Positions 1 through 14,045 of a stretch of 24,000 nt of DNA are shown here, piece by piece. The stretch lies in the NCBI GenBank assembly GCA_002002485.1, contig MQVI01000016.1:1-24000 (forward strand), in the 5' to 3' direction. The translations under genes were made by a program, and so were the position numbers. The notes beneath the pieces were generated by a model. The model was not told the DNA's origin. It saw nothing but the letters and a program-made list of their open reading frames with translations, and searched no databases. Position 1 is the first letter of the stretch, and every line of letters starts with the position of its first letter. Source of the stretch: Pasteurellaceae bacterium 15-036681 (GTDB lineage Bacteria; Pseudomonadota; Gammaproteobacteria; Enterobacterales; Pasteurellaceae).

Positions 1-144
1 CATTCCAGATCTTAATAGGATCTAATTTCTTTTGAAGGGTAAAAGTCTTATTACAAAGATTGCATTTATAGCGTTGAATATTATTTCGAACGCCATATTT
101 GCGAATATTAGATTTTTGGCAGAAAGGGCAAGTTTTTTGTTCAT
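1..144 (-). mobile_element. IS-type transposase 5' fragment with an N-terminal CxxC...CxxC zinc ribbon. The frame is broken at an A6 run and the gene continues beyond the window start.
   Basis: The minus-strand frame from 133 down to 1 reads TCPFCQKSNIRKYGVRNNIQRYKCNLCNKTFTLQKKLDPIKIWN. This is the CPxC...QRYxCxxCxKTF pattern typical of IS1/IS1595-type transposase zinc ribbons. That frame has no start codon. The only nearby ATG (144..142, ATG AAC AAA AAA CTT) is offset by one nucleotide, and one extra A in the A6 run (133..138) would give MNKKTCPFCQ... Confidence 0.5.
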
Positions 145-148
145 TTTC

Positions 149-188
149 AAAAAATCACGGTAAAGCTTGTAATATAAGGCTTTACCGC
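149..188 (-). terminator. Perfect 9-bp hairpin followed by T6, directly upstream of the transposase ATG. Possibly a read-through insulator.
   Basis: Arms cggtaaagc (158..166) and gctttaccg (180..188) are exact reverse complements. On the minus strand the stem is followed by TGATTTTTTG. Confidence 0.4.
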
Positions 189-262: not shown

Positions 263-1243
263 TTAATTAATATTAAAACACGCAATCTGTGCGCCGTCTG
301 GGTACGTTTTCAGTTCAGGGCGTTCAATATGGCACTGATCTGTCGCAAAACGACAGCGAGCGTGGAATGCACAACCACGTGGCGGATTTAATGGGCTTGG
401 GAGTTCGCCCGTTAATTTAATGCGCTCACGGCGGTGCTCTGGCTCTAAGCGTGGTGTTGCTGAAAGTAACGCCTGTGTATAAGGATGGCGCGGATTACCA
501 AAAATCGTTTTGGTATCGCCTTTCTCAACACAACGGCCTAAATACATTACCATTACTTCATCGGCAATATGCTCAACCACTGAAAGATCATGCGAGATAA
601 ACACATAAGATAATCCCATCTCATCTTGTAGATCCATCATTAAGTTTAACACCTGTGCACGAACTGATACGTCTAGCGCTGATACGGGTTCATCGGCCAC
701 TACAATATCAGGGCGTAACATTAAACCACGCGCAATCGCAATACGCTGACGCTGACCGCCCGAGAACATATGTGGATAGCGATCATAAAACTCTGGTTTT
801 AAGCCCACTTTTGCCATCATCTCCAATACCTGCTCTTTGCGCTCTTTGGCAGAAAGCTCTGTATTGATTAACAACGGTTCTTCTAAAATCGCTCCCACTT
901 TTTTACGTGGATTTAATGAACCATAAGGGTTTTGGAATACAATCTGAATTTTCTTACGGCGTAATTTTGCCGTTTCAGGATCGTTTTCTAAAAAGTTTTG
1001 ACCATTGTAGTAAAGTTCGCCTTCCGTTGGGGGTTCAATCATTGTGAGCATACGCCCAAGTGTTGATTTTCCACAGCCTGATTCGCCAACGATAGCCAGC
1101 GTTTTACCTCGTTCAAGGGTAAATGAAACGCCGTCCACTGCTTTAACCAAACGTGGTTTAGCGAACATTCCTTTTTTAACGGGATAGTATTTTTTTAAGT
1201 TCACCGCATCTAAAAGCGGTGCGTTTTTCGGATTATTTTGCAT
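263..1243 (-). CDS. dppF: Dipeptide ABC transporter ATP-binding protein DppF
   Basis: 326-aa ORF with Walker A GESGCGKST, signature FSGGQRQR, Walker B VVADEP and the C-terminal Cys-containing oligopeptide-ABC extension. It is last in a dppABCDF-ordered operon, and its start lies 1 nt after the dppD stop. Confidence 0.9.
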   Translation of the reverse strand: MQNNPKNAPLLDAVNLKKYYPVKKGMFAKPRLVKAVDGVSFTLERGKTLAIVGESGCGKSTLGRMLTMIEPPTEGELYYNGQNFLENDPETAKLRRKKIQIVFQNPYGSLNPRKKVGAILEEPLLINTELSAKERKEQVLEMMAKVGLKPEFYDRYPHMFSGGQRQRIAIARGLMLRPDIVVADEPVSALDVSVRAQVLNLMMDLQDEMGLSYVFISHDLSVVEHIADEVMVMYLGRCVEKGDTKTIFGNPRHPYTQALLSATPRLEPEHRRERIKLTGELPSPLNPPRGCAFHARCRFATDQCHIERPELKTYPDGAQIACFNIN

Positions 1244-1244
1244 A

Positions 1245-2213
1245 TTATAAAATCTCGCCTAATGGGAAATGACATTTCACTTGTCTGCCATTGATTTCTC
1301 GCATTTCTGGTTCTTGGCTACGGCATAGATCCGTTGCATACGGACAGCGCGGATTGAGCAAACAACCTTGTGGACGGTCGTATTTCCCCGGAACCACACC
1401 CGATAGCGACTGTAAGCGAGATTTCCCTTCCGCAAATTCTGGTAAGGCTTTTAACAACGCTTCAGTATAAGGATGAAGGGGCGATTTAAAAATCTGCTCC
1501 GCTTTGCCTTCTTCCACAACCTGCCCTGCATACATTACGATAATGCGATGAGCCGACTCCGCCACTAACGCAAGGTCGTGAGTGATCAGAATTAATGCCA
1601 TATTCTCTTTGCGTTGTAACTCTAATAGTAGGTCGATAATCTGCGCTTGAATAGTTACGTCTAACGCGGTTGTCGGTTCATCAGCAATTAACAGTTTTGG
1701 ATTACAAGCAATTGCCATTGCAATCATCACACGTTGGCTCATACCGCCAGAAAGCTGATGTGGATACACATCTAAACGCGACTCTGGATCCGGAATCCCA
1801 ACCATCGTTAATAGCTCAATCGCACGCTCTCTACGGCTTGATTTTGAACCGCCTTGATGTACTTTGAGCGCTTCCATAATTTGATAGCCAACGGTATAGC
1901 TTGGGTTTAAGCTCGTCATTGCGTCTTGGAAAATCATTGAGACATCAGCCCCGACAATTTTCTGCTTTTCTTTCGGTTTTAAGGCTAATAAGTCATGATT
2001 ATCAAAGTGTAATGCATTTGCCATTACACGTCCCGGATAATCAATTAAGCCCATAATTGCTAGGGAGCTTACCGATTTGCCTGAACCTGATTCGCCAACA
2101 ATACCTAATACTTCGCCTTCATTAATGGTATAGCTAATACGATCTACCGCTTTAAATGGCGCTTTTTGATCGCCAAAATGAACAGAGAGTTCTTTAACTT
2201 CTAATAATGCCAT
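1245..2213 (-). CDS. dppD: Dipeptide ABC transporter ATP-binding protein DppD
   Basis: 322-aa ORF that aligns along its full length with remembered E. coli DppD (MALL.V..LSVHFGD...[26 protein letters not shown]...[17 protein letters not shown]). GGAG lies 5 nt upstream of the ATG. Confidence 0.9.
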
Positions 2214-2222
2214 CGGATTCTC

Positions 2223-3113
2223 CTACTGTTTTAATTTTGGATCTAAAGCGTCGCGTAAGCCATCACCCATTAAGTTGAAAGCTAACACAAGAGATAAAAT
2301 AGCTAAACCCGGAATGGTTACTAACCAGTTTGCTGAACGCATAAAGCCACGTGACTCAGCAAGCATTGTACCTAATTCTGGTGTCGGTGGCTGTGCACCA
2401 ATCCCTAAGAAACCTAAGGCTGCAAGTTCTAAAATTGCATTTGAGATACCCATTGTCATTTGCACGATTAACGGTGCTAAACAGTTAGGTAAAATTACAA
2501 TAAACATTAAACGCCATACGTTTGCACCCGCAACACGTGAAGCAGTTACGTAATCTCGACTTTTTTCACTTAATACCGATGCACGAGTTAAACGTACGTA
2601 ACTCGGAATTGAAACCACTGCGATAGCAATTGCGGCGTTAATCAGCGATGGGCCTAAAATGGTTACTACCCCGATAGTTAATAGCAGGCTTGGGATCGCA
2701 AGCATAATATCCACAAAGCGCATAATCACAATATCAAGAGTACCGCCGTAATAGCCGGCTAATAGGCCTAAAATAATGCCTAATACACAAGACATTACCA
2801 CGATCAGCATACCAATAAAGATTGATAAACGTGCGCCATAAATGATACGAGAAAGAATATCACGACCGATATCGTCCGTACCTAAGATATGTGCCGATTG
2901 ACCGCCTTCCATCCACATTGGTGGAAGTAAAAGAGCTGAACGATTTTGTGCAATAGGATCAAAAGGTGCAACAAAATCAGCAAAGATACAGGCAAACGCA
3001 ACTACGACAATAAATGCAAGACCAACTACAGCGCCTTTATTTTGGCGGAAGTAGTGCCAAAACTCCTGCATTGGCGTAAGCGGTTTTGGTGCTGTTACTT
3101 GTTGATTAGACAT
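2223..3113 (-). CDS. dppC: Dipeptide ABC transporter permease DppC. Start moved to the internal Met, giving 296 aa.
   Basis: The sequence from MSNQQVTAPKPLTPMQEFWHYFRQNKGAVVGL matches the E. coli DppC N-terminus, and the C-terminus NLMGDGLRDALDPKLKQ is identical in style. ATG 3113..3111 is preceded by GGAG (GTTGGAGTAATAAATTAATG). The 27 codons upstream in the ORF track cross a structured spacer. Confidence 0.85.
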   Translation of the reverse strand: MSNQQVTAPKPLTPMQEFWHYFRQNKGAVVGLAFIVVVAFACIFADFVAPFDPIAQNRSALLLPPMWMEGGQSAHILGTDDIGRDILSRIIYGARLSIFIGMLIVVMSCVLGIILGLLAGYYGGTLDIVIMRFVDIMLAIPSLLLTIGVVTILGPSLINAAIAIAVVSIPSYVRLTRASVLSEKSRDYVTASRVAGANVWRLMFIVILPNCLAPLIVQMTMGISNAILELAALGFLGIGAQPPTPELGTMLAESRGFMRSANWLVTIPGLAILSLVLAFNLMGDGLRDALDPKLKQ

Positions 3114-3162
3114 TAATTTATTACTCCAACATTTTTTATAATTTTTTAACAAAACGATCGCT

Positions 3163-3233
3163 GAGCTGGTCGAAGCGTGAGTTTTGTTATTCAAATTCTA
3201 TGCTTTATGCTTCATTGCTTCGACAGGCTCAGC
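3163..3233. repeat. Long imperfect dyad in the unusually long dppB-dppC spacer
   Basis: gctgagctggtcgaagc (3163..3179) pairs with gcttcgacaggctcagc (3217..3233). The stems are 7 bp and 8 bp around a 2-nt internal mismatch, with a loop of about 37 nt. A nested 6-bp hairpin GCTTCG...CGAAGC uses 3217..3222 and 3236..3241. Confidence 0.45.
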
Positions 3234-3246
3234 AACCGAAGCTAGA

Positions 3247-4251
3247 TTAAGTATGACGAATACGTGGGTTTACTACACCGTATAATAGATCAACGGTTAA
3301 ATTCACCACAATAATAATAGTTGCGATAATTAACACAGAGCCTTGTAATACAGGGTAATCACGAGAGTTAATCGCATCAATAATCCACTTACCGATACCC
3401 GGCCACGAGAAGATATTCTCCGTTAATACCGCACCAGAAAGTAGTTGCCCCACAATTAAACCCACCACTGTTACTACAGGAATTAACGCATTACGTAGTG
3501 CGTGAACAATCACAATACGAGTAGTATTTAAGCCTTTTGCTTTAGCGGTACGGATATAGTCTTCACCTAAAACCTCAAGCATTGATGAGCGGGTCATACG
3601 AGTAATAATCGCAAGGGGAATAGTCCCTAATACAATCGCAGGTAACACCAACGATTTAATTGCCCCTACAAATGCCCCCGGTTCATCAGATCGCCATGTA
3701 TCAATCAGCATAAAGCCGGTATCTGCTTCAATCCAAAATTCCGCAGGCAGACGGCCCGAGGCAGGCAAGCCTAATGGCGTTGAAAGGTATAAAATTAAAA
3801 TTAAGCCCCACCAGAAAATTGGCATTGAATACCCCGTCAGCGAGATAGACGAAATCGCATGAGAAATCCACGACTCTTTTTTCACTGCCGCAATGACCCC
3901 AAAGATAATCCCCGCAATCAACGACCAAAGCAACGCAAAGAACGCTAGCTCAACAGTTGCTGGGAATAGGGTGAAAAATTCTTTAAGAACAGGTTCATTG
4001 TTACGGAATGAATTACCAAGATCACCTTGGAAAATCCCTTTAATATAACTGAAATACTGTTCATGTAATGGTAAGTCTAAGCCCAATTGAGCCATCATCT
4101 GAGCATGAACTTCGGGTGAAAGCCCGCGTTCGCCCATACGAATTTCAATCGGATCCCCCGGAATTAAATGCACTAAGGCAAAAGTAATTAAGGTTATCGC
4201 CAAGAATGTTGGGATAACCATTAATATACGTTTAAGAATAAATTGAAACAT
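3247..4251 (-). CDS. dppB: Dipeptide ABC transporter permease DppB
   Basis: 334-aa ORF collinear with remembered E. coli DppB (M.QFIL.R......PTF..ITL.TFA.VH.IPGDP...; ...TRMTRSSMLEVLGEDYIRTA.AKGL...VVNPRIRH). Confidence 0.9.
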   Translation of the reverse strand: MFQFILKRILMVIPTFLAITLITFALVHLIPGDPIEIRMGERGLSPEVHAQMMAQLGLDLPLHEQYFSYIKGIFQGDLGNSFRNNEPVLKEFFTLFPATVELAFFALLWSLIAGIIFGVIAAVKKESWISHAISSISLTGYSMPIFWWGLILILYLSTPLGLPASGRLPAEFWIEADTGFMLIDTWRSDEPGAFVGAIKSLVLPAIVLGTIPLAIITRMTRSSMLEVLGEDYIRTAKAKGLNTTRIVIVHALRNALIPVVTVVGLIVGQLLSGAVLTENIFSWPGIGKWIIDAINSRDYPVLQGSVLIIATIIIVVNLTVDLLYGVVNPRIRHT

Positions 4252-4386: not shown

Positions 4387-5979
4387 TTATTCTAAATCAA
4401 CTTTATAGAAATTATGTAAACCAAATGGGCTTACAATATAACCTTTTACTTCCTTACGCAGAGGGAAGTAAGTCGTTGAGTGAGCGATATTAATCCACGG
4501 CGCTTGTTCATTTGCAATGACCTGTGCTTGTTTATAAAGCTCAGTACGTTTTGCAACATCATTTTCTTGAACCGCTTGTAGAATTAAATCATTGAATGGT
4601 TTGTAGCAGAATTTCGCATAGTTAGAACCTTGCTCAACCGCTGCACAACTTAATAAGGTATTTAAGAAGTTATCTGGGTCACCATTGTCGCCAGTCCAAC
4701 CCATCATACCTGTTTGGTGATCACCCGCACGCATACGTTTGATATATTCACCCCATTCGTAGCTAACGATTTTCGCATTTACGCCCACTTTTTTCCAGTC
4801 TTCTTGGATAAGTTCAGCCATACGACGTGCATTTGGGTTATACGGACGAGATACAGGCATTGCCCACAAGTCTGTTTCGAAACCATTTTCAAAGCCTGCT
4901 TCTTTTAATAACGCTTTCGCTTTTTCTGGGTTGTAGTCGTAATCTTTGATGTCATCATTATAAGACCACATTGTTGGCGGAATAGGGTTTTTCGCTACTT
5001 GGCCTGCACCTTGATATACCGCTTCTAAAATCGCCTGTTTATTTACTGCGTGGCTTAATGCTTGACGCACTTTCACATTATCAAAAGGCGCTTTTTGTAC
5101 GTTGAAGTTTACATAACCGATATTTAAGCCTGGTTTTTCTTGAACAACAAGTGCTGGATTTGCTTTAATTTTTGCCACATCCGCAGGGTTTGGATACGGC
5201 ATTGCGTGACATTCGCCTTTCTCTAATTTCGCTAAACGCACAGACGCATCAGGCGTGATTGAGAATACTAAGCGGTCGATTTTCGCCTTGCCTTCCCAAT
5301 ATTCATCAAAGGCTTTATAACGAATTGTTGAGTCTTTTTGGTAATCTACAAATTGGAATGGACCGGTACCAATAGGGTTGTTATCGAGTTTTTCTGGCGT
5401 GCCCACTTTTAACATTTTATCTGCATATTCCGCTGGTAAAATTGCGGCGAAGTCCATTGCAATATTCGCTAAGAACGGCGCATTTGGTACTTTTAAGATA
5501 AATTTAACCGTGTAATCATCTACTTTCTCTACACGATCGATAATGTTTTGCATATCCATACCTTCAAAGTATTCATACACACCACCTGATACTTTGTGAT
5601 ATGGGTGATTTTTATCTAACTGACGATTGATAGAGAAAAGTACGTCATCTGCGTTGAAATCACGAGTTGGCTTGAATTCTTTATTTGAGTGGAATTTCAC
5701 ACCTTTACGTAAGTGGAAAGTATACTCTTTACCATCTTCTGAAATATCCCATTTTTCTGCAAGAGCTGGGATTACCTTTGTTTCACCCTCTTCGAAAGTT
5801 GTTAAGGTATTAAACATTGTACGACCAGAAGCATCCAAAGTTGCACCATCAACCCCTAATTGTGGGTTGAAGTAAGACGGCGAGGCTTCTAAACAGTAAA
5901 CGAAAGTTTTAGGCGCAGCCATCGCTGAACCTGAAACCACTGCTAATGCAATTAAAGAGAGTTTTGCTAGTTTTTTCAT
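4387..5979 (-). CDS. dppA: Periplasmic dipeptide-binding protein DppA. Start moved to the internal Met, giving 530 aa.
   Basis: Collinear with remembered E. coli DppA (e.g. KWEVSEDGKTYTFHLRKGVK.H.NKEFKPTR..NADDV.FS; WAMPV.RPYNPNARRMAE.IQ.DW.KVGV.AKIV.YEWGEY.KR; GWTGDNGDPDNF). MKKLAKLSLIALAVVSGSAMA/AP is a type I signal peptide. ATG 5979..5977 is preceded by GGAG (CTGGAGTGAAATAATG). Confidence 0.85.
   Translation of the reverse strand: MKKLAKLSLIALAVVSGSAMAAPKTFVYCLEASPSYFNPQLGVDGATLDASGRTMFNTLTTFEEGETKVIPALAEKWDISEDGKEYTFHLRKGVKFHSNKEFKPTRDFNADDVLFSINRQLDKNHPYHKVSGGVYEYFEGMDMQNIIDRVEKVDDYTVKFILKVPNAPFLANIAMDFAAILPAEYADKMLKVGTPEKLDNNPIGTGPFQFVDYQKDSTIRYKAFDEYWEGKAKIDRLVFSITPDASVRLAKLEKGECHAMPYPNPADVAKIKANPALVVQEKPGLNIGYVNFNVQKAPFDNVKVRQALSHAVNKQAILEAVYQGAGQVAKNPIPPTMWSYNDDIKDYDYNPEKAKALLKEAGFENGFETDLWAMPVSRPYNPNARRMAELIQEDWKKVGVNAKIVSYEWGEYIKRMRAGDHQTGMMGWTGDNGDPDNFLNTLLSCAAVEQGSNYAKFCYKPFNDLILQAVQENDVAKRTELYKQAQVIANEQAPWINIAHSTTYFPLRKEVKGYIVSPFGLHNFYKVDLE
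4570..4579 (-). repeat. Uptake-signal-sequence-like 9-mer ACAAGCGGT (10th base T)
   Basis: Plus strand a-accgcttgt, reverse complement ACAAGCGGTT. This matches the Actinobacillus/Mannheimia-type USS core as I remember it. Confidence 0.4.
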
Positions 5980-5990
5980 TATTTCACTCC

Positions 5991-6024
5991 AGTTAAAAAG
6001 AAAGGTAGCAGAAACATTGCTACC
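5991..6024 (-). terminator. Rho-independent terminator after lacZ, lying inside the dppA 5' leader
   Basis: Minus strand reads GGTAGCA-ATGTTTC-TGCTACC (6024..6004) followed by TTTCTTTTTAAC. The U-tract abuts the dppA Shine-Dalgarno. Confidence 0.65.
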
Positions 6025-6042
6025 TGTTGTGTTGCAAATTTG

Positions 6043-6070
6043 AATATACAACTTTTTTTATGAATCGCAA
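6043..6070 (-). promoter_or_regulatory. Candidate sigma70 promoter for dppA
   Basis: Minus strand TTGCGA (6070..6065), 16 nt, TATATT (6048..6043). The predicted transcript starts near 6036 and includes GCAACACAACA and the hairpin above. Confidence 0.4.
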
Positions 6071-6078
6071 TAGATTTT

Positions 6079-10372
<4,294 letters not shown>

Positions 10373-10404
10373 AGGATATACCTTCTGAAAATGAATTTTG
10401 CGGA

Positions 10405-10433
10405 AGTGTAATCCTCTGTTTTGGTAGAAACAA
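10405..10433 (-). promoter_or_regulatory. Candidate lacY promoter
   Basis: Minus strand TTGTTT (10433..10428), 17 nt, TACACT (10410..10405). An alternative -10, TAACAT (10442..10437), lies inside the palindrome listed next. I cannot decide between them from sequence alone. Confidence 0.35.
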
Positions 10434-10436
10434 GTG

Positions 10437-10451
10437 ATGTTAGCTTAACAT
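10437..10451. promoter_or_regulatory. Operator-like palindrome ATGTTA-GCT-TAACAT upstream of lacY
   Basis: Perfect 6-bp arms around a 3-nt spacer. The left part, TGTTAGCT, is identical to the reverse complement of the site in the regulator promoter (11301..11313). Confidence 0.35.
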
Positions 10452-10456
10452 TTTAG

Positions 10457-10478
10457 AAGTGTGAGTTGGGTCACGTTG
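10457..10478. promoter_or_regulatory. CRP (cAMP receptor protein) binding site candidate
   Basis: aagTGTGAgttgggTCACgttg against consensus aaaTGTGAtctagaTCACAttt. One half-site is perfect, the other matches 4 of 5, and the 6-nt spacer is correct. The centre is about 70 nt upstream of the TSS predicted from the TACACT -10. Confidence 0.55.
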
Positions 10479-10495
10479 GGGGATTGTTATAAGTA

Positions 10496-10529
10496 AAAAC
10501 GGATAGGGTTGGTTAAGCCTATCCGTTTT
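10496..10529 (-). terminator. Strong rho-independent terminator closing the orphan cassette and insulating lacY
   Basis: Perfect 12-bp stem aaaacggatagg (10496..10507) / cctatccgtttt (10518..10529) with a 10-nt loop. The minus strand ends CCGTTTTTAC. The hairpin starts 7 nt after the stop of the 45-aa ORF. Confidence 0.8.
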
Positions 10530-10536
10530 ATAGAAA

Positions 10537-10674
10537 TTATTTTTTTAAATCTGGAAGAGTAACGACAAAACTTTTGATCTTGTTTTCACGAATCCCTTTT
10601 AAAATGGCATTACGTGTTCTAATTCTATTCATCTTTTTAAATTCAATCGCATTCTTTGGTTTTTGCTCTGCCAT
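10537..10674 (-). CDS. Small basic protein, 45 aa (MAEQKPKNAIEFKKMNRIRTRNAILKGIRENKIKSFVVTLPDLKK); unknown function; absent from the ORF track.
   Basis: ATG 10674..10672 lies 3 nt after the stop of the 163-aa ORF. It is preceded by AGGAG with 6-nt spacing (CAGGAGTAATATATG) and followed by TAA and the terminator. Composition is 13 K/R against 4 D/E. Confidence 0.6.
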   Translation of the reverse strand: MAEQKPKNAIEFKKMNRIRTRNAILKGIRENKIKSFVVTLPDLKK

Positions 10675-10677
10675 ATA

Positions 10678-11169
10678 TTACTCCTGATAGTTTTTATAAT
10701 TTGGTGTCAGAATCAAAAAACATTCTCCATTAAGCCCTAGTCCAAGAATAGCTTTGAAATTCCTTAATGCTTCAGAAGGAGAATTACACATCTGACGGTA
10801 CATTTTTTGTAGGGATAATCGATCCGCAACAATAAAATAGCAATCGGGATTGTAGCGTTGATAATGTCTAAAAATCAAGCTAAATAACACTTCTTTTAAG
10901 TTTTGATATTTGCTCTTAGTTAAATGATAATTTTTAGGTGCACTGTACAATTCTCCTTGATAGTGATCGTCATAAAAAATTTCAGATAAACTAAATTCTA
11001 CAGTGTAAGTGTGCTTACCACGAGTTAAACGTGAAATTACCTCATCAAAATCCAAACTACCCTCGACAGCATAGGTAAATGAGATTGTATAAGCGACATC
11101 ATTTACGTAAAAATCTGCATATTGATAAATAAAGCCATCATCATTGAGTTCATTAAAAATAATCTCCAT
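10678..11169 (-). CDS. Hypothetical protein, 163 aa; no family recognised.
   Basis: Intact ORF with a strong SD (TAGGAGGACTAATG). It is more AT-rich by eye than the flanking lacY and regulator genes. There is no signal peptide or TM segment and no motif I can assign. Confidence 0.75.
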   Translation of the reverse strand: MEIIFNELNDDGFIYQYADFYVNDVAYTISFTYAVEGSLDFDEVISRLTRGKHTYTVEFSLSEIFYDDHYQGELYSAPKNYHLTKSKYQNLKEVLFSLIFRHYQRYNPDCYFIVADRLSLQKMYRQMCNSPSEALRNFKAILGLGLNGECFLILTPNYKNYQE

Positions 11170-11232
11170 TAGTCCTCCTATAATTCTTTTTTTATAGGGT
11201 TATTCTGCTCAAAACAATTTCATTACACAAAG

Positions 11233-11279
11233 CTCAAATATTATTTTTTCGACGAAAATCGTAAAAATAATATTTTGAG
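11233..11279. repeat. Long AT-rich inverted repeat in the divergent promoter region
   Basis: ctcaaatattatttttt (11233..11249) pairs with aaaaataatattttgag (11263..11279). The arms are complementary apart from a 1-nt register slip (AAA vs AAAA). The inner part cgacgaaaatcg also contains CGA...TCG. Confidence 0.5.
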
Positions 11280-11313
11280 ATTGAAACAACTTAAGAACTA
11301 TGATTAGCTAACA
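11275..11313 (+). promoter_or_regulatory. Candidate promoter of the LacI-family gene with an overlapping operator-like site TGATTAGCTAACA
   Basis: TTGAGA (11275..11280), 18 nt, TATGAT (11299..11304). The TTAGCTAA perfect 8-bp palindrome within 11301..11313 overlaps the -10 and predicted TSS, 23 nt upstream of the ATG. Confidence 0.4.
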
Positions 11314-11335
11314 AAATTGCATTTAAGGGGGATAT

Positions 11336-12331
11336 ATGACTTCATTAAAAGATGTGGCGGAATTAGCAAAAGTATCAATGATGACAGTTTCTCGTGCTTT
11401 GAATTCACCAGAAAAGCTTAATTCTGAAACTTACCAACGGGTAAAGTCAGCCATAGAACAACTCAATTATGAACCCGATCCTACGACTCGTAGCTCGCGC
11501 AAAACCAAAGAGAAAACCGTTGCGGTACTTTCGCTAGGCACGGCAACCACGCCCCTTTCTGTCGATATCCTACTTGCCATAGAACAAACCGCTTACCAAC
11601 ATCGTTGGAATACCTTAGTGATTAATGTCTTTGAAGATAATCCTCGCCAATTTGAACAAGCCGTTGAGCGTGTTATTCAATATCGCCCAACAGGAATTAT
11701 TATTGCACGCAACGGTTTAAAGAATATTAAAATCCCACGTAAATTGCGTGATTTCCCAATAGTGTTAGCAAATTGTGTGACTGATGATATTCAAGTGGCA
11801 AGCTATATTCCCGATGATTATCAAGGACAACGAGATATTGCACGTTTAATCGTAGAAAAAGGCTATCGCAAACCACTGTTTTTACATATTCCCATTAACT
11901 ATATTGCCACTCAAAATCGCAAACAGGGCTTTGAAGATGTATGGTTTAGTCAAGAAAGTCCACTGCAACCGGTGCATTTCTTTATGCAACCTGATGAAGA
12001 AAATTATTTAGGGGGCGCAAAGCCGTTGGCGGATTTATTAGAAAATGGAGAACCGTTTGATTTTGATGTAGTGGTATGTGGCAATGATCGCATTGCTTTT
12101 GTCGCTTACCAGTTATTGCTAAGAAAGGGGCTTAAAATTCCTGAAGACGTTGCAGTAACAGGTTATGACAATATGGTAGGGGTCGCTCATCTATTTTTAC
12201 CGCCCCTAACCACTGTTCAACTACCCCATTATGAAATGGGCGAGCAAGCAATGCTACATTTTATTCAAGGTCGAACAGAGAAAGAAACTGTAGCATTAAA
12301 ATGCTCGTTGATTGCAAGGCAATCGGTATAA
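11336..12331 (+). CDS. LacI/GalR-family transcriptional regulator
   Basis: 331-aa ORF. It has the N-terminal HTH LKDVAELAKVSMMTVSRALN and a periplasmic-binding-protein-like sugar-binding core (..VVCGNDRIAFVAYQLL...GLKIPEDVAVTGYDN). AAGGGGGA lies upstream of the ATG. The effector cannot be read from the sequence. Confidence 0.9.
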   Translation: MTSLKDVAELAKVSMMTVSRALNSPEKLNSETYQRVKSAIEQLNYEPDPTTRSSRKTKEKTVAVLSLGTATTPLSVDILLAIEQTAYQHRWNTLVINVFEDNPRQFEQAVERVIQYRPTGIIIARNGLKNIKIPRKLRDFPIVLANCVTDDIQVASYIPDDYQGQRDIARLIVEKGYRKPLFLHIPINYIATQNRKQGFEDVWFSQESPLQPVHFFMQPDEENYLGGAKPLADLLENGEPFDFDVVVCGNDRIAFVAYQLLLRKGLKIPEDVAVTGYDNMVGVAHLFLPPLTTVQLPHYEMGEQAMLHFIQGRTEKETVALKCSLIARQSV

Positions 12332-12338
12332 ATATTAT

Positions 12339-13931
12339 CTACTCCACATCAATCCCATAGAAGTTGTGTGCCATAAATGGACTTGGCACATAGCCTTTTA
12401 CTTCTTTGCGGATTGGGAAGAATACCGTTGAGTGCGCAATTGGGAGCCATACTGCTAACTCTTTCATCTTCACTTGTGCATCTTTATAGATCTGCTCACG
12501 CTCTGCTTTATCATTGATTTGAGACGCTTTATTGATCGCTTCATCAAACTCTTTATCGCAGAAGCCTGCATAGTTTGAGCCTAACTCAACGGCATTACAG
12601 GTTAAAAGTGGGGTAAAGAAGTTATCTGGGTCGCCATTATCGCCCGTCCAGCCCATCATACCTGTGGCGTGTTCGCCTTTTGCCATACGTTTAAGGTACT
12701 CGCCCCATTCATAGCTAACAATCTTCGCCTGTACGCCGATCTGCGCCCAGTCGTGTTGGATCATCTCTGCCATACGGCGTGCATTTGGGTTATAAGGACG
12801 TGAAACAGGCATCGCCCAAAGTTCTGTTTCAAAACCATTTTCAAAGCCGGCTTCTTTCAACAATTCTTTGGCTTTTTCAGGATTATATTCAAAATCAACC
12901 ACATTATCGTTATAGCCCCAAACTGACGGCGGAATCGGGTTTTTCGCTTTTAAGCCTGCGCCTTGATAAACAGACTCTAACACTGCATCTTTATTTACCG
13001 CATAGTTTAACGCTTTACGTACAAGCACATTATCCAACGGTTTTTGGCGTGCATTAAGCGTGATATAGCCGATATTTAAGCCCGGATTCTCAAGCACATT
13101 GATATTTGGATCGGCTTTTAGCGTTGGTAAATCCGCAGGATTCGGATAAGGAATCGCTTGGCACTCATTTTTTTGAAGTTTTGCCGTACGCACTGTTGCA
13201 TCAGGGGTTACCGTAAAGATTAAGCGGTCAATTTTTGACTTACCCTGCCAGTATTGTGGAAACGCCATAAAACGCACATTTGCATCTTTTTGGTGAGAAT
13301 AGAATGAATATGGGCCTGTGCCAATCGGGTTGGTATCTACTTTTTCTGGTGTGCCTGCTTTTAGCATTTTATCTGCATATTCCGCCGATAAAATCGCCCC
13401 ATAATCTAAGGCAAGATTTGATAAAAATGGTGCATTTGGCACTTTTAAAGTGAATTTCACAATGTAATCATCGACTTTTTCAACGGTATCAATAATATTT
13501 TGCATATCCACACCAGTGAATAATTCATAGCTACCGCCAGAAACTTTGTGGTATGGATTATTTTCATCAATAAAACGAGTGTATGAGAACACCACATCAT
13601 CGGCATTGAAATCACGAGTTGGTTTGAAGTCTTTATTTGAGTGGAATTTTACGTTTTTACGCAGAGTAAGAAGATAAGTTTTGCCGTCGTCAGAGACTTG
13701 CCATTTTTCAGCAAGAGAAGGAATGATGTTCGTTGTGCCTTTTTCAAAGGCGATCAAGCGGTCGAAAACGGCTTGCCCAACGTCAAAACTTGCACCGTCT
13801 GTTGCCATTTGTGGATTAAGAAACATTGGCGAAGATTCAACGCAATAGGTAAAAGTTTTGATCGGGGCTGCATAAGCGCTATTTAGAGCAAAGGCGGAGA
13901 TCAATGTGGCTAATGTTGTGAGCTTTTTCAT
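12339..13931 (-). CDS. DppA-like periplasmic peptide-binding protein, second paralogue. Start moved to the internal Met, giving 530 aa.
   Basis: Collinear with the first DppA, of identical length, and roughly two-thirds identical by eye. Long identical blocks include FKPTRDFNADDV, NPYHKVSGG, WAMPVSRPYNPNARRMAE and MMGWTGDNGDPDNF. The signal peptide is MKKLTTLATLISAFALNSAYA/AP. ATG 13931..13929 is preceded by AAGGA. No permease or ATPase genes are adjacent. Confidence 0.85.
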   Translation of the reverse strand: MKKLTTLATLISAFALNSAYAAPIKTFTYCVESSPMFLNPQMATDGASFDVGQAVFDRLIAFEKGTTNIIPSLAEKWQVSDDGKTYLLTLRKNVKFHSNKDFKPTRDFNADDVVFSYTRFIDENNPYHKVSGGSYELFTGVDMQNIIDTVEKVDDYIVKFTLKVPNAPFLSNLALDYGAILSAEYADKMLKAGTPEKVDTNPIGTGPYSFYSHQKDANVRFMAFPQYWQGKSKIDRLIFTVTPDATVRTAKLQKNECQAIPYPNPADLPTLKADPNINVLENPGLNIGYITLNARQKPLDNVLVRKALNYAVNKDAVLESVYQGAGLKAKNPIPPSVWGYNDNVVDFEYNPEKAKELLKEAGFENGFETELWAMPVSRPYNPNARRMAEMIQHDWAQIGVQAKIVSYEWGEYLKRMAKGEHATGMMGWTGDNGDPDNFFTPLLTCNAVELGSNYAGFCDKEFDEAINKASQINDKAEREQIYKDAQVKMKELAVWLPIAHSTVFFPIRKEVKGYVPSPFMAHNFYGIDVE

Positions 13932-13959
13932 ATTGTGTCCTTTATTTTTTAAATTATTG

Positions 13960-13998
13960 ATAAAAAGAAACCCCCCGAAAGTTATCTTCCGAGGGGTT
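13960..13998 (-). terminator. Attenuator terminator (segments 3:4) in the leader of the second dppA paralogue
   Basis: Minus strand AACCCCTCGGAAG-ATAA-CTTTCGGGGGGTT forms a 13-bp stem including two G-U pairs. It is followed by TCTTTTTAT and lies 29 nt upstream of the SD. Confidence 0.8.
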
Positions 13999-14045
13999 GA
14001 AATTTGTTTTGGCTTTTTTGCTATTTGCATTCGCTACACATTTCG

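Follow-up and report, generated by a model that had tools for sequence, protein, structure and literature searches.

A translationally coupled gene pair preceded by a CRP-S-type site in Pasteurellaceae

The DNA analysed here, referred to throughout as the window, is a stretch of 24,000 nucleotides from Pasteurellaceae bacterium 15-036681 (assembly GCA_002002485.1, contig MQVI01000016.1, positions 1 to 24,000). Between a LacI-family regulator gene and lacY it carries, on the minus strand, a cassette of two small open reading frames (ORFs), named here ORF-A and ORF-B. An earlier note on this sequence had singled the cassette out as an orphan operon resembling a toxin–antitoxin (TA), abortive-infection or other defence module. 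Comparison with related loci shows ORF-A and ORF-B to be a gene pair under purifying selection, strictly paired and co-evolving, mobile and of foreign composition, and preceded here and in related Pasteurellaceae-type loci by a conserved CRP-S-type site.

Layout of the cassette and pairing of its genes

The features of the cassette are listed below in order of coordinate.

10491..10529: intrinsic terminator, bidirectional in appearance (hairpin 10496-10529; U-run on the minus-strand transcript)
10537..10674, minus strand: ORF-B, 45 aa, isoelectric point 10.8, net charge +9
10678..11169, minus strand: ORF-A, 163 aa, isoelectric point 5.2, net charge -6
10681..10685, minus strand: ORF-B Shine-Dalgarno sequence AGGAG, read from the sequence, within the final ORF-A codons
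11174..11179, minus strand: ORF-A Shine-Dalgarno sequence AGGAGG, read from the sequence, 5 nt before the ATG
11202..11207, minus strand: candidate -10 hexamer CAGAAT, implying that transcription begins roughly 26 nt ahead of the ATG
11236..11275: extended AT-rich palindrome in the lacI/ORF-A spacer, enclosing the CRP-S-type site
11245..11266, minus strand: CRP-S-type site, 22 bp, TTTTACGATTTTCGTCGAAAAA, with its centre 86.5 nt ahead of the ORF-A start codon

The particulars given in the earlier note were reproduced when recomputed. A strong Shine-Dalgarno sequence precedes the 163-aa ORF, and a 3-nt gap with AGGAG leads into a 45-aa ORF whose net charge was calculated to be the +9 estimated previously. 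Because the ORF-B ribosome-binding site lies inside the end of ORF-A, translation of ORF-B is coupled to that of ORF-A. The terminator described 7 nt past the ORF-B stop has a perfect 12-bp stem (AAAACGGATAGG / CCTATCCGTTTT), with arms extendable to 15 nt; as RNA it folds at -15.2 kcal/mol (z = -5.7, with 0 of 200 shuffles as stable), and it lies between the cassette and the promoter of lacY. GC content is 0.31 over 10600-11400 versus 0.39-0.42 in lacY, lacZ and lacI, in line with the hand estimate of roughly one-third against about 40% in the flanks.

Both ORFs are under purifying selection and are more than chance ORFs, with ratios of nonsynonymous to synonymous substitution (dN/dS, Nei-Gojobori, among homologues) of 0.06-0.26 for ORF-A and 0.09-0.27 for ORF-B. 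The earlier note held that failure of the two ORFs to co-occur in other genomes would count against it; pairing proved universal, a small basic ORF of 32-50 aa directly following or overlapping the ORF-A homologue (153-176 aa) in all 17 full-length loci. In an eighteenth locus, on a Vibrio plasmid, ORF-A is truncated and the small ORF is still present. The genes overlap by 4-41 nt in 14 of the 15 tabulated loci, the window copy having the 3-nt gap instead, and the partners are of opposite charge in nearly all pairs. Pairwise distances of the two proteins correlate across 15 loci (r = 0.85; Mantel test, 0 of 5000 permutations). ORF-A and ORF-B are thus almost certainly a real, translationally coupled protein pair, inherited and translated as a unit, and since they are always co-encoded and co-evolve, they most likely form a stoichiometric complex. 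In Yersinia massiliensis (L009 6001-6613) the ORF-A homologue extends to 183 aa with an altered C terminus, and the small partner is found only within a longer, uncalled 74-aa ORF; this may reflect a frameshift or a different stop.

Distribution, composition and mobile carriage

The families are small. A word-indexed search of 5.8 billion proteins returned only 4 close relatives of ORF-A, all from Pasteurellaceae. When 1.84 billion representatives were searched exhaustively with a profile, 20 clusters were obtained at E ≤ 1e-3, nearly all of 156-171 aa; another profile search added Yersinia species at about 25% identity. The ORF-B family is as rare as that of ORF-A and occurs in the same taxa only; as a conserved protein of 32-50 aa it is of the type that annotation usually misses.

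On chromosomes, the pair was found in Glaesserella and two related loci, between malY and add in Yersinia, where it is syntenic in several species, with a nucleotidyltransferase gene on one side and an efp-like gene on the other in a gammaproteobacterium, after fruBKA in Mannheimia haemolytica, and in three further lineages. Neighbour genes differ in every lineage, and the description of the cassette as an orphan compact operon was borne out: it is coupled and self-terminated, and the same pair stands in at least nine other chromosomal contexts that contain no lac genes. The homologue of ORF-A in M. haemolytica, an important cattle pathogen, encodes 164 aa (L015 7001-7495) and is present on more than 1000 contigs. 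In many NCBI records it is labelled 'Lhr family helicase', which was rejected as a propagated misannotation, there being no helicase domain in the protein and no lhr gene beside it.

In all 8 chromosomal loci measured, the pair has a much lower GC content at third codon positions (GC3) than the genes around it (in Yersinia 0.24 versus 0.50-0.58), and the cassette is compositionally foreign in every host measured. A gene of the H-NS family lies in one Glaesserella locus (L001 184-594); it is of note only in that the cassette, AT-rich in every host, could be an H-NS target.

Searches with tblastn using the window ORF-A found no match in phages, plasmids or viral contigs. A divergent member of the family (P0022) matched the pair on 8 plasmids by tblastn, and a profile scan (A9) of IMG/VR recovered the family on 4 viral contigs. 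On a 153-kb plasmid of Y. pseudotuberculosis the pair lies near PIN, mazEF and PAAR genes; on a Klebsiella IncF plasmid it is beside IS3, a KAP-type P-loop NTPase gene and pifC; and on a plasmid of S. symbiotica it falls between nucleotidyltransferase/DUF86 (MntA/HepT-like) genes and hha. Two Serratia plasmids (L022 and L024) encode head-processing, portal and lysozyme genes and are phage-plasmids; in both, the pair is beside the portal gene and a gene for an SNF2/methylase protein of more than 2200 aa (L022 1280-7774; L024 4746-14483). Judged by annotation strings, this giant protein resembles the P1 anti-restriction protein DarB. On a P2-like viral contig (IMG/VR 3300028612_001997; L032 4897-11051) the pair directly follows what was recognised by eye as the P2-type tail gene D, and behind the pair come an S24-type repressor-like ORF and genes for a Dcm-type cytosine methyltransferase and a 763-aa ATPase; the site looks like a cargo or defence hotspot. 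Foreign GC3 together with carriage on plasmids, phage-plasmids and prophages therefore places the family in the mobile accessory gene pool, in company typical of TA and defence cargo.

On plasmid pMAO6 of Vibrio sp. MAO6 (L026 5416-7295) a gamma-mobile-trio element has inserted, by its gmtY end, in the ORF-A homologue, leaving the C-terminal 65 aa of ORF-A (7010-7207) and an intact small ORF (7167-7295). This copy is uninformative on toxin polarity because the promoter was also removed; another match in the same plasmid record might correspond to the missing part of ORF-A. Weak similarity of the plasmid small ORF to phage sequences (phrog_2140, phrog_17354 and tblastn, E 0.03-0.8) was set aside as probably compositional, since the T4-like and N4-like phages concerned have no adjoining ORF-A-like gene.

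The CRP-S-type site

CRP-S sites are 22-bp CRP sites in which position 6 is C instead of T and position 17 is G, so that the core resembles TGCGA and not TGTGA; such sites depend on Sxy/TfoX as well as on CRP, and the competence regulon is defined by them (PMC1635313). The host of the cassette belongs to the Pasteurellaceae, a lineage with the Sxy/CRP-S system and with DNA-uptake specificity. The window contains Apl-type uptake signal sequences (3 full, 5 core), as do L001, L002, L005, L015 and L017; L004 has only two 8-nt uptake cores, and L016 has 21 Hin-type uptake sequences. Neither tfoX nor competence genes were found in the 24-kb window.

Alignment of the upstream regions brought out a 22-bp dyad, TTTT[GAT]CGA-N6-TCG[CA]AAAA, across the Pasteurellaceae-type loci. 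The half-sites in the window are TTTTACGATTT and TCGTCGAAAAA, with C6 in both (TACGA/TTCGA), and many genuine CRP-S sites have C6 in one half only (PMC1635313). The pattern TTTTNCGANNNNNNTCGNAAAA occurs once in the window versus 0.01 times expected. Published sites of Glaesserella parasuis competence genes include those of comA (TTTTACGATCTTCATCGAAAAA), comM (TTTTGTGACACTCGTCGAAAAA) and pilA (TTTTTCGATCTACGTCGAAAAA) (PMC5809987, Table 3); the window site nearly matches the comM and comA sites and, like many published G. parasuis sites (TTCGA, TACGA), is without G5 in both halves.

A CRP-S matrix was built solely from 11 published G. parasuis competence-gene sites, which themselves score 21.6-34.2 bits. 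On this scale the window site reaches 26.4 bits, the next-best match in the window 15.4 bits, and none of 200 random 24-kb sequences attains 26.4 bits, the maximum among them being 21.1. The second-best match, TTTTTTGTTCATTTTCAAAAAA (133-154, plus strand), is downstream of the last ABC ATPase gene and below the range of real sites, and so is probably due to chance. In six further loci (L001/L005, L002, L004, L015 from Mannheimia, and L016) the highest-scoring match anywhere in the locus is one 62-106 nt upstream of ORF-A, which reaches 19.5-28.9 bits; as L001 and L005 are the same species, these represent five independent lineages. A weak site of 11.4 bits is present in L017. The Yersinia, L014 and L018 loci had nothing above background on this matrix, and enterobacterial-type CRP-S cores were absent upstream of the pair in these loci and in four plasmid copies (L021, L022, L023 and L025).

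The site also follows the dialect of its host, being GTCGAAAAA in Glaesserella-like hosts (in G. australis the full site is TTTTGTGATACTCGTCGAAAAA) and TGCGA/TCGCA in the locus with Hin-type uptake sequences. The palindrome that the earlier note had placed in the promoter region is present, with 17-nt arms of 94% complementarity, and an extended flank similar to its own, AATATTATTTTT..., is found upstream of the Mannheimia homologue. An autoregulatory TA operator is not evident in the palindrome; it holds a competence-type CRP-S site instead. Hairpins just upstream of the site in the Glaesserella-type loci (L001 7876-7918; L002 827-871; L004 131-176) are inverted pairs of the Apl-type uptake sequence ACAAGCGGT; they were considered as operators and rejected, being instead uptake-sequence terminators of the preceding operon.

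If the hexamer CAGAAT were the -10 element, the centre of the CRP-S-type site would fall near -61, which weakly suggests class I geometry; the call is provisional because AT-rich sequence has many -10-like hexamers. A scan for consensus promoters found none on the minus strand of the lacI/ORF-A spacer, as expected of an activator-dependent promoter. Judged by its upstream sequence, the cassette is probably CRP- or CRP-S-controlled in Pasteurellaceae and very probably belongs to the CRP competence regulon, and its expression is predicted to depend on Sxy. The pair was found in no published competence regulon list, and no competence paper that mentions it was found. Drawn up from H. influenzae, the membership of the Pasteurellaceae Sxy/CRP-S regulon has been regarded as almost complete; it would thereby gain a conserved, unannotated member.

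Readings of the pair, and its surroundings in the window

Neither window protein matched Pfam, NCBIfam or PADLOC at E ≤ 1, in agreement with the earlier remark that the 163-aa ORF has no recognisable motif, and neither Pfam nor NCBIfam placed it in a characterised housekeeping or sugar-metabolism family. Against PHROGs the window proteins gave only noise (E = 0.14), and divergent members had no usable match in any of these four libraries. A search of PDB sequences with the ORF-A profile gave no match, GNATs included; with the ORF-B profile, all that came up was a repeat motif in designed Ika proteins and further matches due to chance, which were discarded. The alignment of small partners suggests that ORF-B consists of a basic helix followed by a short, strand-like G/K-x-[IL]-K-x-V-x-V tail. 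The small partners of L014 (24.1 bits, cutoff 27) and L018 (13.9 bits) approach DUF5486 (PF17588) below threshold, whereas neither window ORF-B nor any of the remaining small proteins from Pasteurellaceae and Yersinia matches this domain, which has no known function and which no paper that we found mentions. By these searches neither protein belongs to a described family.

An AlphaFold model of ORF-A from a 24-sequence alignment, which replaced a 4-sequence run with a predicted local distance difference test score (pLDDT) of 59.9, was confident (pLDDT 87.5; predicted template-modelling score 0.84). The modelled topology is beta-beta-beta-alpha-beta, a long loop, then alpha-beta-alpha-beta-beta-alpha. 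Foldseek of the model against the PDB gave no match at E ≤ 1e-3; the top 50 were nearly all GNAT-fold proteins, including KacT (ranked first), AtaT, SpeG and FeeM, with template-modelling (TM) scores of 0.36-0.47 and root mean square deviations (rmsd) of 5-8 Å. GNAT motif A (Q/R-x-x-G-x-G/A), which binds the acetyl-CoA pyrophosphate, lies between strand 4 and helix 3. It is absent from ORF-A, where residues 66-84 form a 19-residue loop at the expected place, with no conserved glycine ahead of helix 85-106 (18-24 sequences). The Pfam Acetyltransf family had no match in 18 ORF-A members at E ≤ 0.1, and hhalign of the ORF-A profile against a hand-entered sequence of E. coli RimI returned a probability of 0.1%, which also leaves a by-eye match to GNAT motif B of RimI unsupported and rejected. 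Weak fold matches, the absent motif and the empty RimI comparison together therefore limit the description of the ORF-A model to a remote GNAT-like topology, outside the GNAT family; it may represent a new branch of GNAT-like folds that lacks the cofactor motif. Residues invariant across the family are F20, F59, L91, H102, Y111, L120 and Y124, mostly aromatic or hydrophobic. The best structural neighbours were found in BFVD (E 6e-7 to 1e-3, TM 0.5-0.62, about 160 columns) and are uncharacterised phage proteins, together with single domains from large multi-domain proteins of phages that have Zeta-toxin, ParB/Srx or ADP-ribosyltransferase annotations. Two examples are the 168-aa A0A6J5NRM4 and, from Atu_ph07, one domain of A0A2L0UZ96 (778 aa, 'Zeta toxin domain-containing protein'); tblastn and profile searches detected no sequence similarity to ORF-A.

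Our leading interpretation, to which we assign a probability of roughly 40%, is that the pair is an autonomous, mobile two-protein module in the competence regulon that would most likely be TA-like. ORF-A, a globular acidic alpha/beta protein of remote GNAT-like topology, and ORF-B, a basic helix-plus-strand peptide of 45 aa whose translation is coupled to it, would work together in a stoichiometric complex. Among the Pasteurellaceae copies, that of the window included, a promoter of the module's own with an Sxy/TfoX-dependent CRP-S site would drive transcription, so that the module is predicted to stay off in rich medium and to be induced along with the DNA-uptake genes once cyclic AMP-CRP and Sxy are active; transcription would end at the cassette's terminator, ahead of the separate promoter of lacY. 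One partner would restrain the activity of the other, as in H. influenzae toxTA and E. coli hicAB. Such a mechanism is put forward tentatively and by analogy, toxic and neutralising activities being conjectural at this stage; it is ranked first because of the coupling, opposite charges, mobility, foreign composition, plasmid and prophage neighbours and the precedents of TA operons with CRP-S sites. The presence of the GNAT toxins KacT and AtaT among the nearest solved structures is consistent with it, as a weak fold resemblance.

The two precedents, toxTA and hicAB, are TA operons under CRP-S control (bioRxiv 10.1101/330480). Like the cassette as predicted from its sequence, toxTA is a small, horizontally acquired two-gene operon that encodes cytoplasmic proteins from a CRP-S promoter and stands outside the uptake machinery (10.1101/330480). 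It differs in that ToxT has 119 aa and ToxA is a 98-aa helix-turn-helix antitoxin, whereas the cassette encodes proteins of 163 and 45 aa with no DNA-binding domain; there is no sequence or Pfam similarity between the two systems, and the toxicity of toxTA has been demonstrated where a TA role of the cassette is proposed by analogy. The hicAB operon likewise combines a very small basic protein, the toxin HicA, with a larger partner, of about 145-165 aa in this comparison. Its gene order is reversed relative to the cassette, hicA coming first; HicB has a DNA-binding domain and ORF-A none, and neither HicA nor HicB has a Pfam match in the cassette. With the GNAT toxins of KacT/KacA, AtaT/AtaR and TacT/TacA, ORF-A shares its size (about 160-175 aa), and KacT (5zgn_C), the first-ranked PDB match, is a weak one (E about 6e-3, TM 0.40, rmsd 7 Å). 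The antitoxins of these systems block their toxins with a short helical segment, by analogy a plausible model for ORF-B. ORF-A differs from these toxins in lacking the acetyl-CoA motif A and a Pfam acetyltransferase match, and its partner is encoded downstream, has 45 aa and is not a ribbon-helix-helix protein. HI1631 and HI0365 offer a different parallel, as members of the CRP-S regulon recognised by their promoters and with no role in transformation assigned (PMC1635313; PMC5809987); the former is annotated as restriction-endonuclease-like and the latter as RlmN-like, and neither is related to ORF-A or ORF-B. The cassette fits best among the small mobile two-gene modules that the competence regulon has captured, a kind already known, here with new proteins. 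It would be the third such module under the competence regulator, with proteins unrelated to those of the other two, which would strengthen the idea that these modules play a role in, or exploit, the competent state.

Several results weigh against this interpretation. The PADLOC scan that the earlier note had proposed (PADLOC-DB 2.0) was empty for the window pair and for 10 further ORF-A family members, that is, for 11 members of that family and ORF-B, and in the library scans neither protein resembled any toxin, antitoxin or defence family in sequence. The lack of a PDB fold match at threshold, the missing motif A and the RimI result count in the same direction. Of the usual marks of type II TA systems, the cassette has tight two-gene coupling, strict co-occurrence and a patchy, mobile distribution, and does not have a recognised toxin superfamily or an antitoxin DNA-binding domain, neither protein matching a DNA-binding family in Pfam scans; nor is there a separate autoregulatory operator, the only strong palindrome in the promoter being the CRP-S-type site. 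The family is tiny (about 20 clusters) and apparently single-copy, with strict one-to-one partners, unlike most TA families. The more than 1000 Mannheimia contigs and the synteny in Yersinia are accounted for by a useful host function no less readily than by addiction, and the window copy, like the other chromosomal copies, is among housekeeping genes and not in a defence island. As to regulation, the Glaesserella-type sites of L001/L005 and L002 each have one canonical TGTGA half; given these halves and the missing G5 in both halves of the window site, Sxy dependence stays a prediction. The copies outside Pasteurellaceae are without the site, so competence control would be a lineage-specific overlay and not intrinsic to the module. 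What survives of the TA, abortive-infection or defence reading in the earlier note is thus that the cassette is coupled, self-terminated and foreign, with distant copies among TA and defence genes; homology to known systems was not found, and the chromosomal copies keep other company.

A broader account is a new kind of competence-induced conflict or DNA-entry system, in which a GNAT-like protein of a new family, restrained by or acting through the 45-aa basic peptide and spread on plasmids, phage-plasmids and prophages, would have been wired to Sxy/CRP to act when foreign DNA enters, protecting incoming DNA or policing the competent state; we regard this as rather unlikely. Less likely again is the narrower proposal that the pair helps DNA entry itself, acting on or for incoming DNA, for instance by shielding it from restriction or nucleases or by modulating its processing, with the basic peptide binding nucleic acid and ORF-A serving as a chaperone or as an inhibitor of a host enzyme. 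That function would explain co-expression with the uptake machinery and carriage by elements that establish themselves in new hosts. The CRP-S promoter, the strongly basic ORF-B, the location on Serratia phage-plasmids by the portal gene and the giant SNF2/methylase protein, and the phage proteins and large multi-domain phage protein domains that are the best structural neighbours (TM about 0.5-0.62) all speak for it, as does long vertical retention in Mannheimia and Yersinia, which at the same time tells against a TA-like module. Yet ORF-A has no similarity to a known anti-restriction protein, none of which appears among the top 50 PDB matches, and it is too mildly acidic for a DNA mimic; the Yersinia and other copies without a CRP-S site fit poorly, and the DarB resemblance and the related 'polyvalent protein' idea come from annotation strings. 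Should both the TA-like and the DNA-entry readings fail, a well-defined orphan pair with a regulatory handle would still be left.

It is improbable that ORF-A is a starvation-induced, divergent GNAT-like acyltransferase with a non-canonical donor or substrate, ORF-B being its substrate, activator or inhibitor and the upstream site an ordinary cyclic AMP-CRP catabolite site. The GNAT fold of nearly all top PDB matches would be accounted for, and so would the canonical TGTGA half in two Glaesserella-type sites and the frequent position of the pair immediately after operons for sugar or peptide transport (malXY, fruBKA, ABC transporters); in a by-eye alignment, invariant Y124 falls in the helix after the central strand, the place of the GNAT catalytic tyrosine, and H102 is also invariant. 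Such an enzyme is, however, hard to reconcile with the loop that replaces the pyrophosphate motif and has no conserved glycine, with the absence of a Pfam GNAT match in 18 members, the empty RimI comparison and TM scores below 0.5, or with invariant residues that are mostly hydrophobic or aromatic. Foreign composition and plasmid and prophage carriage argue against housekeeping metabolism, and the neighbour genes vary by lineage.

The idea that the pair is an accessory of the lactose locus, serving lactose uptake or regulation, has in its favour its position between lacI and lacYZ and nothing else, and is effectively refuted by comparative context, since no lac genes accompany the pair anywhere else, whether on chromosomes, on plasmids or in viral contigs. 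The promoter site and the terminator of the cassette also belong to it alone, and lacY apparently has a CRP-like site and an operator-like repeat of its own.

The genes around the cassette were identified by Pfam scans of the large ORFs of the window, and those of the lac block are the following.

11336..12331, plus strand: LacI-family regulator
10372..9104, minus strand: lacY, following the cassette
9093..6079, minus strand: lacZ, following lacY

The minus-strand gene order begins with a peptidase M3 gene, pheA, a pseudouridine synthase gene, galE, a gene for an MFS protein and adk, and continues with a four-gene iron-type ABC system and an SBP_bac_5 gene (14030..12339). Past lacZ come a second SBP_bac_5 gene (6051..4387) and four dpp/opp-type ABC genes for permeases and ATPases (4251..263). 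Since SBP_bac_5 paralogues flank the lac block and the cassette (4387-14030), the lac block resembles an insertion into a dpp/opp-type peptide transporter operon.

An apparent control region of lacY is seen at 10437-10475 on the minus strand, downstream of the cassette terminator. A canonical-type CRP-like site, CGTGACCCAACTCACA, identified partly by eye, is located ahead of lacY at 10460-10475. These signals beyond the terminator, an apparent CRP-like site and an operator-like repeat, indicate that the cassette is a separate transcription unit. The repeat, ATGTTAagcTAACAT, is an inverted repeat near lacY that was picked out by eye as a candidate LacI-family operator, and a related sequence, TGATTAGCTAACA, is found directly upstream of lacI (about 11301-11314).

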